Shown: piece by piece, positions 1,639 to 55,770 of the stretch
Numbering within the stretch: the stretch's first letter is position 1
How the letters are laid out: every line of letters begins with the position of its first letter
Source: Minisyncoccia bacterium
GTDB lineage: Bacteria > Patescibacteriota > Minisyncoccia > Phycocordibacterales > UBA9973
Reading direction: 5' to 3'
Assembly: GCA_965656375.1 (NCBI GenBank)
Contig: CBFHKH010000001.1
Span: 514,845-578,844 of the forward strand
Length of the DNA: 64,000 bases
Program-made: the position numbers and the translations under genes
The notes under the pieces: generated by a model
Seen by the model: the letters and a program-made list of their open reading frames with translations, nothing else
Told to the model about the DNA's origin: nothing
The model's database searches: none

Positions 1639-4219
<2,581 letters not shown>

Positions 4220-8825: not shown

Positions 8826-9884
8826 TTAGAGCATGCGCTCGAGCGCCTTAGGATTAATAGAGTATTGATACGCACTTTCCATGCTAATCTCCCCTTTTTG
8901 AACGAGTTCGATGAGAGATCTATTCATATCTACCATGCCTTCTCCTGAAGAAGTCTCGATGACGTTATTTATTTCGTGTGTGCGCTTTTCACGGATAAGA
9001 TTTGATACGGCATTGTTGTTGATCAGAAGCTCGTATGCTGGAATACGGCCACCTGCTACGCGCGGGATAAGTCTTTGTGAAAATACGGCAATCAAACTCG
9101 AAGCAAGCTGAAGCCTGATCTGATCCTGCTGACTCGGTGGGAATGAATCGATGATACGATCGATAGTTTGAGAAGCATTGTTTGTGTGGAGCGTCGAGAG
9201 GACGAGGTGTCCCGTCTCTGCAGCAGTCACTGCAGCTGCGATCGTCTCTGGGTTTCGCATTTCACCGATAAAGATAACGTTCACATCTTCACGGAATACT
9301 GACTTGAGGGCTCCAGAGAAATCCTTCGTATCGATACCAACTTCACGCTGATCAATAATAGACTGATCAGGTTCATATACGAATTCGATAGGATCCTCGA
9401 TAGTAACAATGTGTGCTGCGCGCTCTTTGTTGATCTTGTTGAGCATAGTCGAGAGTGTCGTAGATTTTCCTTGCCCTACAGGACCAACAACAAGGAAGAA
9501 TCCTTGCTTCTTGTCTGCGAAAGACTGAAGAATCGGAGGAAGATTTAATTCTTCAAATGATTTGGCCTTTGGTATGAGTCGAAACGCGATTGAAATATTC
9601 CCACGCTGGAAAAATGCGTTACCTCGCAAGTGAGTCATACTATCAAGCGTATATGAAAAGTCTGCCTCTTTCTCTTCCATGAATGCTTTTGTCTTCTCTG
9701 TACCGAGGATAACAGTAAGCATACCCTCCATATCTTCATTCGTAAGTGGATTCTTGTTGGCCAGGAAGATAAGCTGTCCATCAACACGGATTGCAGGCTT
9801 GCGACCTGCTCCGAGGTGGAGATCAGATCCGTTTTCATGCATGAGACTAGTGAGCAATTCGTTGAGAAGTTTTGAGTAATCCAT
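8826..9884 (-). CDS. pilT: twitching-motility retraction ATPase
   Basis: 352 aa; Walker A GPVGQGKSTT, plus the PilT-family His and Asp box regions. Confidence 0.9.
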   Translation of the reverse strand: MDYSKLLNELLTSLMHENGSDLHLGAGRKPAIRVDGQLIFLANKNPLTNEDMEGMLTVILGTEKTKAFMEEKEADFSYTLDSMTHLRGNAFFQRGNISIAFRLIPKAKSFEELNLPPILQSFADKKQGFFLVVGPVGQGKSTTLSTMLNKINKERAAHIVTIEDPIEFVYEPDQSIIDQREVGIDTKDFSGALKSVFREDVNVIFIGEMRNPETIAAAVTAAETGHLVLSTLHTNNASQTIDRIIDSFPPSQQDQIRLQLASSLIAVFSQRLIPRVAGGRIPAYELLINNNAVSNLIREKRTHEINNVIETSSGEGMVDMNRSLIELVQKGEISMESAYQYSINPKALERML

Positions 9885-10328: not shown

Positions 10329-12065
10329 CTAGAAGTTATAGACTTCTTGGAATGGAATATCACCCTTCAAAGCTTTTAGAATCGCGTCTTCACGGATAGA
10401 GAGCATGCCGCGTTCGCGTGCAAGCTTGTATATCTCCTGTTCTTGTGGCCGTTTCAAGATAACTTCTTGCATCGCCTTGTCTATAGAAAACATTTCGAAA
10501 ACAGGAATTCTCCCACGCATACCAGACGGGCATTCAGGCGATGGAATCGCTTCATAGACGCTCCCATCAAGCTTTAATTTCTCTTTGAATTGTGGAGGCA
10601 GGTCTGCAAACTGCTTGTCTATGATGATACGAGTTGCATCATCGATCGGTATCTCATGTTTGGAACCTGGATAGATACGGCGAGCAAGTCGCTGCGCAAT
10701 ACAGAGTGTAAGCGTTGGGGCAATCAGATATGGATCAATGCCCATATCGATCAAGCGTGGAATCGCACCAACCGAAGAGTTTGTGTGGAGCGTCGAGAGG
10801 ACGAGGTGTCCGGTAAGTGCAGCTTGAATAGCAAGCTCGGCAGTTTCTTTATCACGGATTTCTCCCACGTAAATAATGTCGGGGTCCTGACGCAGTATTG
10901 AACGAAGTCCTGATGCAAATGTATAGCCGATCTCCGGTGTGACTTGAGACTGATTGATACCATCGATATGGTATTCGACTGGATCTTCGAGTGAGACAAT
11001 ATTCTTCTCTTCGTGATCAAGCTCACCGAGCATCGAGTAGAGTGTCGTTGTCTTACCGGAACCTGTCGGACCAGTGATCAATATCAACCCATATGGTTTC
11101 TTTAGTGCATCACGAACAAGAGCGAGATTATCCTCTGAGAGGTCAAGAGAATCTACGGGGAAAATACCTCTTTGTGAATCAAGAATACGCATCACGATCT
11201 TCTCGCCATAGTATGACGGCATCGTTGAGACACGAAAGTCAATCTTGCGTCCATCTATCTTTGCGGAGAAACCACCATCTTGCGGTTTGCGCTTTTCATC
11301 GAGGCGCAATTTAGCGAGAATTTTGATACGCGCAACGACACCATTGTATACATTGATAGGAAGGACGAGCGATGTATGGAGAACACCATCGACACGAAAT
11401 CTGACTTTTACTTTATCACCTACATTTTCAATATGAATATCTGACGCCTGACCTTCTGTTGCATGGCGTAGGATAACTGCAACGATCTTGATGATCGGTG
11501 CATCTTCGACGATTCTCTCTTCTTCACCAGGCTTGAGTGTGTCTGATGTCTTTATATTTGTCTCGACAGTCACTCCCTCACTATCTCCATCTGCAATTTC
11601 ATTATCAAGTTCAGAAAGTGCTTGATCAACTTCGTTGCCCAGGCCTTCATACATTTCGAGAAGCTTATTGTAGGCTGATGCAGTGATAAGGAATAATTTG
11701 AACGGCTTATTGATACGAGCAGTGATAAATGTGAGGGCATCCATTGCCTGAACATTTTCCGGATCAATGATACCGATTTCAATAGCGCTATCGCTTACTC
11801 CGATCGGCACAAAGTGGTAAATACGTGCAGCGTCGACAGGGATCAGTTTGAGCGTCGATGGTGAAACAGTCTTCGGATCAATTTCTTTTGAAGGAATATT
11901 AAAAAGTGCTGCCTTTGCTTCGAGGATCTTTTGTTCATTTATATTGAAATCAAGAAGCGCTTGATCAACGCTTCCTGCATATTTATCAAGAGCGATCTTC
12001 TCTATTTCGGCTATTTGTCCTTCTTTGAGAAGCCCGCGTTTTAGTAGCTCATCGAGAAGTACCAT
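10329..12065 (-). CDS. pilB: type IV pilus assembly ATPase (GspE family)
   Basis: 578 aa with an N-terminal GSPII_E_N-like region and Walker A GPTGSGKTTTLYSML. Confidence 0.9.
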   Translation of the reverse strand: MVLLDELLKRGLLKEGQIAEIEKIALDKYAGSVDQALLDFNINEQKILEAKAALFNIPSKEIDPKTVSPSTLKLIPVDAARIYHFVPIGVSDSAIEIGIIDPENVQAMDALTFITARINKPFKLFLITASAYNKLLEMYEGLGNEVDQALSELDNEIADGDSEGVTVETNIKTSDTLKPGEEERIVEDAPIIKIVAVILRHATEGQASDIHIENVGDKVKVRFRVDGVLHTSLVLPINVYNGVVARIKILAKLRLDEKRKPQDGGFSAKIDGRKIDFRVSTMPSYYGEKIVMRILDSQRGIFPVDSLDLSEDNLALVRDALKKPYGLILITGPTGSGKTTTLYSMLGELDHEEKNIVSLEDPVEYHIDGINQSQVTPEIGYTFASGLRSILRQDPDIIYVGEIRDKETAELAIQAALTGHLVLSTLHTNSSVGAIPRLIDMGIDPYLIAPTLTLCIAQRLARRIYPGSKHEIPIDDATRIIIDKQFADLPPQFKEKLKLDGSVYEAIPSPECPSGMRGRIPVFEMFSIDKAMQEVILKRPQEQEIYKLARERGMLSIREDAILKALKGDIPFQEVYNF

Positions 12066-45750: not shown

Positions 45751-45915
45751 CGCCTTGGCACGTCTGCCTCCAGCTTGGACATGATGTCGTCACGAATAAT
45801 TCCTCGCTGTCGCTGCGGAATTTTCTCGATCCTGTTTGGACTCGTCGTCACAAGTATTTTTCTGGTGAAAAATCTCGCGACCCCGCCTCGGCACGTCTGC
45901 CTCCGGCTTGGACAT
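45751..45915. repeat. degenerate tandem copies of an approx 55-bp repeat family
   Basis: cgccttggcacgtctgcctccagcttggacat (45751-82) and cgcctcggcacgtctgcctccggcttggacat (45884-915), plus a related copy ctgctgaaaaattccgcgaccccgtctcggctcgtcagcctccgacc at 49681-49740. Confidence 0.6.
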
Positions 45916-49626: not shown

Positions 49627-49660
49627 AAGGCAAATGCTTTCCTCTTTTTTTTGTGGAACT
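49627..49660 (+). terminator. rho-independent terminator
   Basis: GAGGAAGGCA-aa-TGCTTTCCTC followed by T8. Confidence 0.6.
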
Positions 49661-49672
49661 GGGCGGAGTTGA
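49652..49672. repeat. 21-bp direct repeat duplicating the tmRNA 3' end (distal att site of an ssrA-integrated element)
   Basis: tgtggaactgggcggagttga is identical at 49652-49672 and at 52419-52439, the latter being the 3' end of ssrA. Confidence 0.7.
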
Positions 49673-50212
49673 GTCACTGATATTTTTCTGCTGAAAAATT
49701 CCGCGACCCCGTCTCGGCTCGTCAGCCTCCGACCGTTCAACTCCTATCCCTACTTACCCCATATACCCAAAAAGCCTGCCATCCGAGGCAGCCTTTTATT
49801 GGTATTGTGGACTACCCCAGATTAAGGTACGAACACAAAAAATCATCAAATTCCTCTCCCTTACAAAAACACAAACCCATTGCTTGGGATGAAATCGAGA
49901 AAGAATTGTTCGTCTTAGAAGAGATTCTAAAATCTGATTCTTCTGAAGATGATCCTTTTACTTCTTCTGTATTTCCTCCATAGGCTTTTCAGGTTTGTTT
50001 TCGAGCTGCCAGAAGAAGGCCTCTACAACAATATCAGCTAAGATGCCTATTTGCTCATCTTCGGTGATATCCGGATTTCGTAGCCTAGCTATCATATCTT
50101 CTAGCTCATATCTTACAACTGTATCCATATCCACCGGTTATACCAGAATTTGCAGCATATGCAAATTCCCCGCCCTTACTAGCTGTATCATTAATTTTTA
50201 TAATTACACTAT

Positions 50213-50453
50213 GAACAAACGAAAAGAGATTGTTCCAAACAATTTGAAAGAGTATCGATTGAAAGCAGGGCTAACACAGAAGGAAGTTGCGAAATTACTT
50301 TGCTTACAATGTGAAGATCGCCTGTCTCATTGGGAAAAAGGACAAGCTGTTCCTTCTATCAAAAATATTATTAAGCTTTGTGGTATCTATCAAACCACTT
50401 TTGAAGAAGTATTTAATGTTCTTAAAAAACAAAATCCAAAACTAAAAATATAA
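50213..50453 (+). CDS. XRE-family HTH regulator
   Basis: MNKRKEIVPNNLKEYRLKAGLTQKEVAKLL...; about 80 aa HTH_XRE. Confidence 0.6.
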
Positions 50454-50754
50454 TCGAAAGGATAATAGGAATAGCCTTTAAACAAAAAATTATTGTAAAA
50501 TATTTTTTAACTCCCGGCTGATTCAAAAAATCTATGCGAAGATTAGCCGGATTGAGAAAAGTTTCTGGAGTAAGAACGCTAAAAACAGATGCATATACGC
50601 CGAATATTGCAGAGAAGGTTGCATATTCCTTATTTAAACGAATGGCTGCAATAATAGTGACTGCTAATGGAATCAATGAGAGAAAGCAAATTTCAAGGAA
50701 CTTAAAAAATCCTTTCTTTGCTTGAGCTTCTGAGAGTGGTGGAGTATATGACAT
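50422..50754 (-). CDS. small membrane protein
   Basis: 110 aa with two or three TM helices; weak call. Confidence 0.3.
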   Translation of the reverse strand: MSYTPPLSEAQAKKGFFKFLEICFLSLIPLAVTIIAAIRLNKEYATFSAIFGVYASVFSVLTPETFLNPANLRIDFLNQPGVKKYFTIIFCLKAIPIILSIIFLVLDFVF

Positions 50755-50763
50755 AAAATATTT

Positions 50764-51594
50764 TTATCTTGATAGCTGAGTAATTGCAGCCTGCAAAACC
50801 TGCCAGCAGATTTTTGCAGTATGTTCATCAGGATTAAAATTCGATGACATTTGTGCATATGGGTGAATGTAATTCCTAAAATCACGCAAGGCATGGCTAA
50901 ACTTCTTCACATCTTCACCAAGTAAATTAATATCCCTAGCAACATTTATAAAATCATTTAAAGCCCAATTTGGAAATTGCTTTACAGTTCCTCCTCTATC
51001 CCTTGGGCTAAGAGAACTTCGATTAAAATTTTGAGGATCCTTCGTTGCTATTCCAAGTAAAATTCCTTCCAATGTACTCCCGCAAAGAAAAATAACGGCT
51101 AAAGATGCTTTAGCATTGAGGCATTTAGCAATCTCATCCATTCTCTGTTCAAGAACACTGGTTATGCTACTGTCCAATCCTAGTTTATGAATAGAAACAT
51201 TCTTAAATTCTTTGCTAATAAAATCCTCTTCTTTCATCTCCGGGGTTTGGGTTTTAATACCAAGCAATTTATTAGCCACTGACCTGCCTGCCACCACTAA
51301 ATCATCGGGGAAATCTGACTTTTTTAAATTGCCTAATAGGATTTGATTTTCAATATACTCAATAAGCTTCGAAATCGATTTTCCAACCAAGGGATCATCA
51401 GCAACTTTCCAAAAGCCCCTGAGTCGATTAGCTTTGGAGCCACTCGCATAATTATATTTGTCATCATAAATATTTATACCAACATCGTCCTGGAAAAACT
51501 CTCCCATTGTTCTATCAGTAAAATTTAAAACATAGCCAGTCATTTGGAAGAGTTTCTCTAATATCTGCTTTTCGTTGGTACCAAGATTTGCCAT
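50764..51594 (-). CDS. hypothetical protein with a possible C-terminal HEPN-type Rx4-6H motif
   Basis: 276 aa; C-terminal ALRDFRNYIHPYAQ; no other recognisable motif. Confidence 0.35.
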   Translation of the reverse strand: MANLGTNEKQILEKLFQMTGYVLNFTDRTMGEFFQDDVGINIYDDKYNYASGSKANRLRGFWKVADDPLVGKSISKLIEYIENQILLGNLKKSDFPDDLVVAGRSVANKLLGIKTQTPEMKEEDFISKEFKNVSIHKLGLDSSITSVLEQRMDEIAKCLNAKASLAVIFLCGSTLEGILLGIATKDPQNFNRSSLSPRDRGGTVKQFPNWALNDFINVARDINLLGEDVKKFSHALRDFRNYIHPYAQMSSNFNPDEHTAKICWQVLQAAITQLSR

Positions 51595-51599
51595 TATGC

Positions 51600-52034
51600 T
51601 TAGTTTAATAAAGAGTCAAAATCAACAATTGCTTTTCTAAATATGTTTTCAATAGCCTTTACCGTCTCCTCATTCACGCTGGCTGGGCTGCTCGCCACCC
51701 ACTTTGCCAAGTTATACAATTCTTGGGGAGATAACGATAACCATTTTTCGTTCTTCCCCAGGAATATAAGAAGAGACATGACAGCCACACGCTTATTCCC
51801 ATTCTGAAACGGATGATTTTTAATCATGAGATAAAACAAGATTGCAGCTTTACTAATCAATCCTTTATACAAATCTCCTTTGTATGTCTGGAACGGTGCC
51901 AGGATGCATTGTTCAAGGGCCCGAGGGTAGCGAGTTGAAAACTCAGGAATTGGCTCTCCCCATTCTAAATATTTTCGAGCAAGTTCATGTGCAGAATATT
52001 CGATTTCTTCCATTGTCAGCCGTTTGGTTTTCAT
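51600..52034 (-). CDS. doc: Doc/Fic family toxin (death-on-curing type)
   Basis: Motif HPFQNGNKR matches the Doc-type Fic motif HxFx(D/N)GNKR; 144 aa. Confidence 0.75.
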   Translation of the reverse strand: MKTKRLTMEEIEYSAHELARKYLEWGEPIPEFSTRYPRALEQCILAPFQTYKGDLYKGLISKAAILFYLMIKNHPFQNGNKRVAVMSLLIFLGKNEKWLSLSPQELYNLAKWVASSPASVNEETVKAIENIFRKAIVDFDSLLN

Positions 52035-52036
52035 AC

Positions 52037-52306
52037 CTATTCTCGGCCAAGCATACGAATTGTTTCTCCGTAGTCTTTAATGGTTTTATCTACTAAGGCT
52101 TTTATTTCCTGTTTATCAATTTCTGTGAGTGGTCGGGTATCAAGATGCTTAATGACTTCCTCATGAGGAATAACATAATTACGACCAATCTTATGTGCCT
52201 TAATTGATCCATCTTTGATCCAGCGAAAAACTGTAACCCGGGTTACATCGAGAATTTTAGCGACTTCAGAAGTTGAAAAATAATTTTGACCATGTAACGA
52301 TTCCAT
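52037..52306 (-). CDS. HTH (excisionase/AlpA-like) DNA-binding protein, probable antitoxin partner of Doc
   Basis: 89 aa; STSEVAKILDVTRVTVFRWIKDG is a MerR/excisionase-type HTH; 3-nt gap to doc. Confidence 0.55.
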   Translation of the reverse strand: MESLHGQNYFSTSEVAKILDVTRVTVFRWIKDGSIKAHKIGRNYVIPHEEVIKHLDTRPLTEIDKQEIKALVDKTIKDYGETIRMLGRE

Positions 52307-52418
52307 AGGCCTATGGTAACATATGTTACATAACTATGCAAGAGTTGTTACATTTCCTATTTATTAGGATGCTATGAAATAAGCCTTTTTTAGAAATATA
52401 ACTTGTTATTTCTAACAA

Positions 52419-52816
52419 TGTGGAACTGGGCGGAGTTGAACCGCCATGCAAAAGATGTTCATAGATGAATCTACATGTGTATCATGTTCGATTGGGTTTA
52501 AATATGAAAGCTAGAGAACACGCAATATACTTTCACACCGAGCTTTTCATTGTCGAGATCTCTCGCAAGCGGTGAGAGATCCGTAACCCGATAAATTATG
52601 CCTCTCCTCTGTATCGGATGTCGAGAAGAGAGACACCTGACTGGCTTAAATTAAGCGAGTGCAGGAGCGAAGTTGAAACCAAATGCGTTAGCAAATGGTG
52701 ACTTCACCATAGCGACTTTGTTTGCACGTAGTCTTTTGGAAGTAGTTTAGCGAGATACCTCCGCACTCGACACGCACATCTATGAGGACGAACCTTTGTC
52801 GAAGCCCGTCAGTCCC
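52419..52816 (-). ncRNA. ssrA: tmRNA (SsrA)
   Basis: 5' GGGACUGACGGGCUUCGAC... pairs with 3' ...GGCGGUUCAACUCCGCCCAGUUCCACA (tRNA-like T-arm and acceptor). The internal frame GCU AAC GCA UUU GGU UUC AAC UUC GCU CCU GCA CUC GCU UAA gives a tag near ANAFGFNFAPALA. Adjacent to smpB. Confidence 0.8.
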
Positions 52817-54040: not shown

Positions 54041-54862
54041 TTAAGTAAGGCTTTTTATATCAGAAGCCGTATATTTCCCTACTTTTATGCGTTTTATAGA
54101 GTAAGTTACAAGAGGTACTCCTATCTTTTCTCCTATGTCATGTACAAGCTGACGGATATAAGTACCGCTAGAGCAGTGTATGATACACCTAAACAAAGTA
54201 AATTCTGTCTGATTAGATTCTTCAAATGTTCTATTCCATGCGTTCATAATTTCCTCTTGTCTGAAATCTCCATGTACGAGCCCTATGCGCCGCAATATCT
54301 CCTTTTGCAAATCATCTTTTGTAAATATCATCTCGCTAGTACACTGTAACGTATGAATCGTCACTTCATGTTCTGGAAGTATGTCAGGTAGAGTATCATC
54401 TTTGGAAAGCTGGAAGAGCTGTTTGCCTCCAACTGTCTTTGAAGAGAATGGTGGGTATTTTTGAGTCAAAGTTCCAATAAAAGACATTAGTATCTGAGCG
54501 AGGTCGGAGAGAGGATTTGAAACGGTCTGGCCGAGACCATCTGAGAATTTGGCGAGGAGATCCGAGGACCTTTCAAATCCTCTCTCCGACGTAATGACTT
54601 TTCCGAGCAAATCGTACGTATCAGTTTCAAACCCTACCAATATCTCAAACTCGTATGTCTTATCGAGGCCAAGGTATTTTTCCTTATTTTTGCATTCATC
54701 GCCAATAAGGAGGATCAGAATGCCTTCTGCCATTGGATCAAGCCTCCCTGCGTATGTCATAGGAATATCATTTTGTATACCGTATTCAAGTCTCGATCTT
54801 TCGAGACATTCAAGGGGTGTTTCCCCTAGATTTTTACAGGCGATGACCACAGATAGCGACAT
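54041..54862 (-). CDS. truB: tRNA pseudouridine(55) synthase
   Basis: Catalytic-Asp motif TYAGRLDPMAEGILILLIG and C-terminal GTYIRQLVHDIG. Confidence 0.85.
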   Translation of the reverse strand: MSLSVVIACKNLGETPLECLERSRLEYGIQNDIPMTYAGRLDPMAEGILILLIGDECKNKEKYLGLDKTYEFEILVGFETDTYDLLGKVITSERGFERSSDLLAKFSDGLGQTVSNPLSDLAQILMSFIGTLTQKYPPFSSKTVGGKQLFQLSKDDTLPDILPEHEVTIHTLQCTSEMIFTKDDLQKEILRRIGLVHGDFRQEEIMNAWNRTFEESNQTEFTLFRCIIHCSSGTYIRQLVHDIGEKIGVPLVTYSIKRIKVGKYTASDIKSLT

Positions 54863-55678: not shown

Positions 55679-55770
55679 TTATAAATATTAAAAGTTACGC
55701 GAATTATATTCTTTCCTCGGGTAAAGTCACCAGACCGGCCCGGAAATAAAATAATTCGCTCCACAATATC

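Follow-up and report, generated by a model that had tools for sequence, protein, structure and literature searches.

A hairpin repeat inside the truB gene of a Minisyncoccia bacterium is probably one copy of a structured palindromic repeat family of Patescibacteria

Introduction

Rickettsia palindromic elements (RPEs) are selfish palindromic repeats that lie in-frame within housekeeping genes (Ogata et al. 2000, 2002; summarised in PMC10969869), and they are described as losing their repeat identity over time (PMC6649704). Palindromes in coding sequences have been proposed to be maintained by template switching or conversion between the two arms (PMC6649704). REPs lie outside genes and are marked at the 5′ end by a GTAG or CGTC tag (PMC3733652).

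Here we analyzed a hairpin repeat in the truB gene of a Minisyncoccia bacterium, which lies in a 64-kb stretch of genomic DNA (the window, meaning that whole stretch), together with its relatives in other genomes. Intragenic invertons, said to have been described by Chanin et al. in 2024, reportedly consist of inverted repeats that flank a short intragenic segment, the frame being open in both orientations and the loop recoded. Our analysis indicates that the truB hairpin is probably a copy of a structured palindromic repeat family that is specific to Patescibacteria and has multiplied within genomes, both in genes and in spacers.

Results

The truB gene of the window contains an inverted repeat whose two 20-nt arms are 100% complementary and are spaced 48 nt apart (Table 1). 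A sequence-only reading of this DNA had proposed that a second locus of a repeated element lies inside the truB coding sequence, with perfect 19-bp arms around a 48-bp core that contains the shared sequence. The second locus was confirmed by the finding of a homologous copy in ligA, and the core does contain the shared sequence, as about 60 nt are 80% identical to positions 2402–2461 in the LigA ORF. The arms are perfect, as had been proposed, but they are 20 nt and not 19 nt long, and the right arm ends at 54590 instead of 54587. The element reaches beyond the arms, where an internal loop rich in purines is followed by a short outer helix, and the model match thus covers 54495–54598. Pairing of the arms runs on into the core past one bulged base (GGTC/GACC). 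The arm sequence was found at only these two sites in the window, and no match to it was obtained in 100 dinucleotide-preserving shuffles with up to three mismatches allowed.

Folding of the region and target-site duplications had been named as checks in the same reading. The truB region was predicted to fold stably (−49.1 kcal/mol, z = −5.4; −47 to −49 kcal/mol overall for the hairpin), and the covariance model (R1) scored the truB copy at 97 bits on the + strand (E ~1e-22) versus 20 bits on the − strand. No clean target-site duplication was detected in the flanks of the truB copy, which read ...TTAC, element, CTCGC.... An Rfam scan of the truB region (E <= 10) returned only a sub-threshold match to the mir-14 generic hairpin, with 27 bits versus a gathering score of 53, and a simple terminator scan left the truB copy uncalled. 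The consensus motifs of the hammerhead, the hairpin ribozyme, the K-turn, and attC, compared with the core by eye, did not fit.

Table 1. Coordinates of the truB hairpin, its parts, its host gene, and the related copies in the window
Feature	Position	Strand	Basis or remark
Full truB copy of the element	54495..54598	+	Covariance-model (R1) match; + strand folds better, antisense to truB
Left arm of stem P1, GTCGGAGAGAGGATTTGAAA	54503..54522	.	Perfect 20-nt inverted repeat
Conserved core, 5′ half, GTCTGGCC	54525..54532	+	Sequence
Variable hairpin P2, GAGACCATCTGAGAATTTGGCGA, partly decayed in the truB copy	54533..54555	+	
Conserved core, 3′ half, GGAGATCCGAGGAC	54556..54569	+	Pairs with GTCTGGCC; AGAU and GA are bulged, one U.G wobble
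Right arm of stem P1, TTTCAAATCCTCTCTCCGAC	54571..54590	.	Perfect 20-nt inverted repeat
Host gene truB, 273 aa	54041..54862	-	Pfam TruB_N, E=5.6e-22; homologue alignment
ligA copy of the element	2376..2485	+	R1 model, 53.8 bits; arms imperfect, still pair
ligA core, GTCTGGCC	2408..2415		
ligA core, GGAGATCCGAGGAC	2440..2453		
Host gene ligA, 698 aa, NAD-dependent DNA ligase	1639..3735	-	Pfam
Third copy, decayed, in the rpmI–rplT spacer	55691..55767	-	R1 model, 28.5 bits, E ~1e-4

The R1 covariance model identified three copies of the element in the 64-kb window. The arms of the ligA copy differ in sequence from those of the truB copy, yet they pair with each other (for example, GGGGCAAAG with CTTTGTCC), and the favored strand of both copies is the + strand of the window, which is antisense to both genes. 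The two copies are homologous as DNA and are translated in different frames, truB reading ...FERSSDLLAKFSDGLGQT...; therefore, it is the nucleic acid that is conserved and not the protein. The third copy has kept arms of an AT-rich subfamily (GAATTATATTCT and ATAAAATAATTC), and its core is rearranged, with the remnants CCTCGG...CCAGAC. In this copy, again, the weaker-folding strand is co-oriented with the rpmI–rplT genes.

Other repeats were also observed in the window. The perfect 21-nt direct repeat TGTGGAACTGGGCGGAGTTGA is present at 49652–49672 and 52419–52439, with one copy overlapping the 3′ end of the tmRNA gene (52420–52816, minus strand). Judged by eye from motifs, the intervening 2.7 kb encode an excisionase/AlpA-like HTH protein, a Fic/Doc-like protein (FQNGNKR), an Xre-like HTH protein, and two unknowns. 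The segment from 49652 to 52439 resembles a small island that has integrated into ssrA and retains no integrase between its repeats. Two imperfect direct repeats lie at 9180–9224 and 10779–10823 (45 nt, 91% identity, 1.6 kb apart) and, near tRNA-Ile, at 45751–45782 and 45884–45915 (32 nt, 94% identity, 133 nt apart).

We searched one-genome-per-species GTDB contigs with the strict pattern GTCCTCGGATCTCC-N15-35-GGCCAGAC, which specifies a 22-base core. At least 115 stretches matched, and across these the conservation of the core is partly built in because the pattern required it. The matches listed were labeled Paceibacterota, Nomura-, Adler-, Vogel-, or Kaiserbacteria, Minisyncoccia, Parcubacteria, "Patescibacteria group", or unclassified, and the sole other label among them was Bacteroidetes, on a 3.4-kb contig, L084. 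On this contig (JACAAW010000233.1, "Bacteroidetes bacterium"), the element sits in a truB of the Patescibacteria type, and the contig is probably mis-binned. The closest TruB homologues of the window protein are Patescibacteria too. Several genomes had five or six copies each among the matches listed, and copies at different loci of the same genome were often near-identical in both stems: P1 and P2 are common to L026, L094, and L101 (CAYHMN01) and likewise to L002, L041, and L075 (JAUSIP01). Such similarity bears the mark of recent amplification. The covariance model also detected additional copies whose cores have diverged, each within 8 kb of a copy matched by the pattern (L042, 3819–3919; L003, 1169–1253; L041, 1427–1542; L025, 1401–1478; L089, 6854–6970), and the strict pattern thus undercounts the family.

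The strict pattern gave no match in IMG/VR viral contigs. The 120 stretches obtained with a loose viral pattern (16 specified bases) were judged to be due to chance, and the five readable looser-core matches had no palindromic flanks. An autonomous or longer version, in which the two halves of the core would be widely separated, was not found in the 115 loci listed and the window, nor was a transposase, reverse transcriptase, or other partner enzyme identified. Literature searches by core sequence (DNA and RNA, both strands) or by keyword found no description of the element, with coverage that was incomplete, so that a prior description is possible. With these copies at hand, the explanation that the truB hairpin is a chance inverted repeat or an assembly artefact is effectively refuted: its sole point in favor is that the sequence comes from a metagenome assembly, whereas zero matches are expected by chance, contigs from NCBI and from Logan carry the identical TruB protein, and at least 115 homologous copies exist in independent assemblies.

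The element is 82–152 nt long in the 114 copies analyzed. Read 5′ to 3′ on the best-folding strand, it begins with a short outer helix, commonly GC, after which come a GNA loop and the 5′ arm of stem P1, which is about 20 nt of free sequence with an A-rich end and is followed by a bulged pyrimidine and (R)GUCUGGCC. After GUCUGGCC come the variable hairpin P2, often closed by tandem G.A pairs, and then GG-AGAU-CC-GA-GGAC; the 3′ part comprises the 3′ arm of P1 with its U-rich start, a second GNA loop, and the partner strand of the outer helix. Pairing of the eight GUCUGGCC bases with GG..CC..GGAC is continuous, and the AGAU and GA bulges and the U.G wobble are invariant features of this helix, the bulge bases being 98–100% conserved. 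The columns of the core 5′ half were likewise invariant in all 13 seed copies (13/13) and in more than 100 of the 108 aligned copies. The flanks of the element read GCGAA...GAAGC or covarying variants, and the triplets that flank P1, which form a conserved GNA/GNA loop, were identical in 25 copies versus 11 expected.

Pairing is supported by covariation throughout. In the alignment of 108 copies, which was fitted to the covariance model and thereby favors structure, standard pairs occupied 90.2% of the pair cells, as opposed to 35–61% when the partners were slid by 1–3 columns. Double-sided changes were observed in 946 cells of this alignment versus 279 ± 16 in shuffles, and all four Watson–Crick types occurred at every P1 pair. 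An unaligned, arm-by-arm extension, which gave 2607 Watson–Crick pairs in 114 copies, led to the same conclusion. The two-pair outer helix covaries (GC 53, AU 19, CG 12, UA 12), and so does P2 in other copies (CCUCGCC..GGCGAGG, CCUGUCC..GGCAGG, and CCGGGGCCCC). The arms differ among loci and covary, and conservation is limited to the central core.

The two strands of the element are not equivalent. The strand with GUCUGGCC...GGAGAUCCGAGGAC was the more stable one in 109 of the 114 copies, with a mean folding energy of −45.3 kcal/mol versus −38.5 kcal/mol for the other strand (Wilcoxon p = 1e-19). Mismatches in P1, which are independent of the energy model, were G.U (G.T) 104 times and A.C 35 times on the favored strand, and the internal loops on this strand are purine-rich, with GAA/GAA and tandem GA in P2. 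Since a palindrome that evolved only in the double-stranded form would be symmetric, we infer that the single-stranded form of the favored strand matters, as ssDNA or as RNA. On the favored strand, the core hairpin is preceded by an A-rich stretch and followed by a U-rich stretch.

Copies of the element lie both within and between genes. Among the 114 analyzable copies, 61 are intragenic, residing in long ORFs that continue for 60 nt or more to either side, and every one of the 61 is open and leaves the frame downstream intact. They occur in all three phases and in both orientations; the mRNA has the weaker-folding strand in 42 cases and the stronger-folding strand in 19. The hosts are PolA (8), LigA (8, not counting the window copy), TruB (5, likewise without the window copy), and RecG (4), followed by TGT, PheT, TrmD, and UvrC with three copies each and, further, DnaE, class I aminoacyl-tRNA synthetases, UvrB, and others. 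The copies are read in all six frames (RSSDL, VLGSP, GPRISS, TVWP..RRSEDL, NGLA..GDPRT, and SGR..EEIRGP), and the core has a stop codon in 0 of 6 frames. The other 53 copies are intergenic, located in short spacers, typically 10–40 nt from the ORFs on both sides, and show no strong preference in orientation (17 versus 14 between tandem genes).

These placements bear on the idea that the element is an intervening sequence, which would be removed from the mRNA (intron-like, or cut and religated) or be skipped by the ribosome. Patescibacteria are known for insertions in their rRNA genes, and a hairpin of −47 to −49 kcal/mol is so stable that it would impede ribosomes. However, the observation that 61 of 61 intragenic copies are open and in frame, with six frames in use, is predicted for translated inserts and would be needless if the element were removed. 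The element is also too small, has no match to a group I or group II intron or to a ribozyme in Rfam, and occurs in both orientations within genes. We thus consider an intervening sequence to be highly improbable.

The effect of the element on its host proteins was assessed from alignments and structure prediction. In TruB, the loop between the DTxDxLG and QxYPxFSS motifs is 27–30 aa long without the element and 43–63 aa long with it. Residues ~91–120 of the window protein, TSERGFERSSDLLAKFSDGLGQTVSNPLSD, are encoded by the element. The AlphaFold model of this protein had a mean pLDDT of 89.6, and residues 91–120 had a pLDDT of 56–59, compared with >90 for the flanking blocks, making this the only low-confidence segment. 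The LigA insert, ~37 aa long, separates the two Cys pairs of the zinc finger, and the Pfam match to the DNA_ligase_ZBD profile covers the second half only. Translation of the inserts would yield peptides such as GFERSSDLLAK and FSDGLGQTVSNPLSDLAQILMSFIGTLTQK. Both the TruB and the LigA inserts are therefore most simply explained as tolerated, translated surface excursions.

Other inserts recur in the same TruB loop of other Patescibacteria, including KISGPRVGSPDAEIL, VIPDLIRNP, and SGIQNLDFRLHGND/GLINLDSRLRGND. The homologues that carry them fall into groups (P0004, P0017, P0019, P0022, P0032, P0033, and P0059; P0057, P0058, P0061, and P0065; P0090 and P0103). These inserts look like translations of other repeat families, so the loop would be a general landing site.

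We then compared orthologous sites. In the truB loop of relatives, the element is read forward (RSSDL...GQT), in reverse (TVWP...RRSEDL), or in other frames, or is present as remnants, and many TruB orthologues have no element. Among distant metagenome truB loci from an independent sample, 5 of 80 had the element at the same place, with three copies in one orientation and two in the other. All nine LigA orthologues (56–84% identical) had it between the zinc-finger cysteines, in orientations of 4 versus 5 that are interspersed on the LigA tree. The closest LigA pair with opposite orientations, L036 and L111, is 70% identical and shares the same P2 type. Outside the element, the nine LigA orthologues were 40% identical at third codon positions and 76% identical at positions 1 and 2. 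The proximal arms of the element were 70–73% identical irrespective of frame and orientation, and the distal arms were 40–49% identical, with each copy still almost perfectly self-complementary. Set against the 40% at third positions, these arm identities indicate that the core and the proximal arms are constrained at the nucleotide level. The distal stem is drifting at about the neutral rate with its pairing kept, which could be achieved by compensatory selection or by template-switch correction of the arms at quasi-palindromes. Copying of the arms from the host flanks was considered and rejected because young copies in the same genome share their arms and because the loop and the outer helix are located beyond the arms.

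In vertically inherited genes, the core and the proximal arms are conserved more deeply than expected of a purely decaying selfish insert. This observation raises the alternative that the element is host-functional, a structured RNA or ssDNA signal that acts in cis under purifying selection and whose spread is secondary; it might serve to bind a protein, as a site of processing or of RNase III action, to pause or terminate transcription, or as a priming signal. Conservation of 70–100% in the core and proximal arms where neutral sites stand at 40%, compensatory changes that maintain pairing, the strand-specific fold with its conserved U.G wobble, bulges, and purine loops, and the A-rich and U-rich stretches on the two sides of the core hairpin on the better-folding strand all fit such a role, and RPEs, by contrast, are reported to lose their repeat identity (PMC6649704). 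On the other hand, the element takes both orientations relative to host genes (42 versus 19 within genes, 17 versus 14 between tandem genes), and its better-folding strand is mostly antisense to the mRNA, which ill suits a co-transcribed RNA signal. The many TruB orthologues that have no element, the opportunistic-looking positions (protein linkers, loops, and any short spacer), the absence of an Rfam match, and the simple terminator scan, which did not call the truB copy, also count against a host function. We therefore regard it as unlikely.

The presence of both orientations at one site raises a further alternative, namely that the element is an intragenic inverton whose core flips in place, such that TruB, and also LigA, switch between two in-frame isoforms. 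The perfect 20-nt arms around a 48-nt segment are what such a switch would show, and flipping the truB core keeps the ORF open to give ...GFETVWPRPSENLARRSEDLSNPL..., a peptide of the type present in the TruB of other species (RTVWP...RRSEDLSN). The interspersed orientations on the LigA tree, with L036 and L111 opposite, also agree with this explanation. However, the arms are not conserved between loci, so a sequence-specific invertase site is not apparent, and half of the copies are intergenic. An exact look-up of the flipped TruB isoform in a protein collection found it absent, a result of little power as only two contigs carry the gene.

In LigA, every asymmetric feature lies within the long arms, and inversion through the arms fits. 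In truB, the outer loop and the outer helix beyond the arms switch orientation together with the core, as do the P1-flanking triplets, unlike what recombination between the arms would produce, and we rejected arm recombination as the source of the opposite orientations in truB because the outer loop flips too. Opposite orientations at one site could thus arise by inversion through the arms, which fits LigA, or by repeated insertion or flipping of the whole element, which is needed for truB. Taken with the points above, this makes an inverton a quite improbable explanation of the truB hairpin.

Discussion

Our preferred explanation is that the truB hairpin is a member of a dispersed family of structured repeats of about 90–130 nt, and the following mechanism is proposed for it. 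The element would be mobile or selfish, dependent on its structure, and tolerated at permissive loops of proteins; we infer its mobility from the copy number and the within-genome similarity of its sequences. It forms a rod-like hairpin consisting, from the outside to the inside, of the outer helix, a purine-rich 3x3 loop (GNA/GNA), a ~20-bp stem, the bulged core helix, and a terminal hairpin. Propagation or recognition may involve the single-stranded fold of one strand, as ssDNA or RNA, and a hypothetical trans-acting enzyme may read the conserved core and the loops rather than the arm sequence. Intragenic copies survive only if they keep the frame open and lie in permissive surface loops or linkers, and a surviving copy would be translated as a floppy insert of ~30–37 aa, as in TruB and LigA. 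Because none of the six core frames contains a stop, either orientation is tolerable. After insertion, the stem stays paired as its sequence drifts, through selection on the fold or template-switch correction of the arms.

The element may, more tentatively, represent a new class of structure-defined nucleic-acid element that is actively maintained for a very long time in essential genes and switches orientation in place, either as a set of intragenic switches that recode surface loops of replication, repair, and tRNA-modification enzymes or as the recognition site of a structure-specific recombinase or retroelement. We hold this to be possible but less than likely.

The repeat family is apparently undescribed; it resembles RPEs but has a structured core that is kept and not left to decay. 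Protein-coding palindromic repeats have so far been regarded as a curiosity of Rickettsia, and the family would extend the phenomenon across a huge uncultured radiation and into central enzymes, among them DNA ligase, DNA polymerases I and III, TruB, RecG, UvrB/UvrC, and tRNA-modifying enzymes. It would also explain many odd low-complexity inserts (RSSDLL, GPRISS, TVWP..RRSEDL, ARPDH, and the like) that inflate and confound CPR protein alignments and annotations. The combination of a bulged core, covarying stems, and a strand-specific fold makes a motif amenable to covariance-model searches and offers a route to the enzyme that moves or reads it. Finally, the element may serve as a natural experiment on the tolerance of essential proteins to insertions and on the upkeep of hairpins in coding sequences.

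Several known systems share features with the Patescibacteria element. MITEs (Correia, RUP, ERIC, SPRITE, and others) are likewise small, non-autonomous hairpin repeats, some of them terminator-like and some occasionally fused in-frame; however, they have conserved terminal inverted repeats, target-site duplications, and related full-length ISs, whereas the terminal arms of the Patescibacteria element are its variable part, no clear target-site duplication was seen among its copies, and the 115 loci listed and the window yielded no parent IS. Integron attC sites follow a similar design, in which a folded single strand defines the recombination site, few bases are conserved, bulges are extrahelical, and the terminal hairpin varies, but the Patescibacteria element is without R and L boxes (RYYYAAC/GTTRRRY), cassette arrays, or an integrase and has intragenic copies. 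REPs/REPINs (RAYT, Y1 HUH) and the ends of IS200/IS605 also form long imperfect hairpins in genome-specific families, and the strand-specific single-strand fold with bulges suggests recognition as ssDNA, as in REPs/REPINs. The Patescibacteria element differs from REPs in that about half of its copies are intragenic and its flanks, GCGAA...GAAGC, bear no GTAG or CGTC tag.

Coding palindromes of Nematomorpha mitochondria are comparable in that long, near-perfect inverted repeats are kept in protein-coding genes, but they are not a family built on a common conserved core, and each of their two arms codes for conserved protein (PMC6649704). With intragenic invertons, the truB copy shares inverted repeats that flank a segment open in both orientations; the Patescibacteria element is, however, a dispersed repeat family and not a locus-specific switch, and no invertase was found.

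Among known phenomena, the Rickettsia palindromic element comes closest to the Patescibacteria one. Both are short (~100–150 bp), palindromic, multi-copy repeats with no coding capacity of their own, and no mobilizing enzyme is assigned to either. Both lie in-frame in unrelated housekeeping genes as well as between genes, are compatible with the fold of the host protein, and occur in host-dependent bacteria with small genomes. The Patescibacteria element belongs to another phylum and probably differs in sequence. An RPE family uses one frame and encodes a conserved peptide, whereas the Patescibacteria element is read in all six frames and combines hypervariable, covarying arms with a near-invariant bulged core across a class-level group. 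In contrast to RPEs, it also keeps its pairing and its core at orthologous sites, at ~60–80% identity of the host proteins, and is found there in both orientations.
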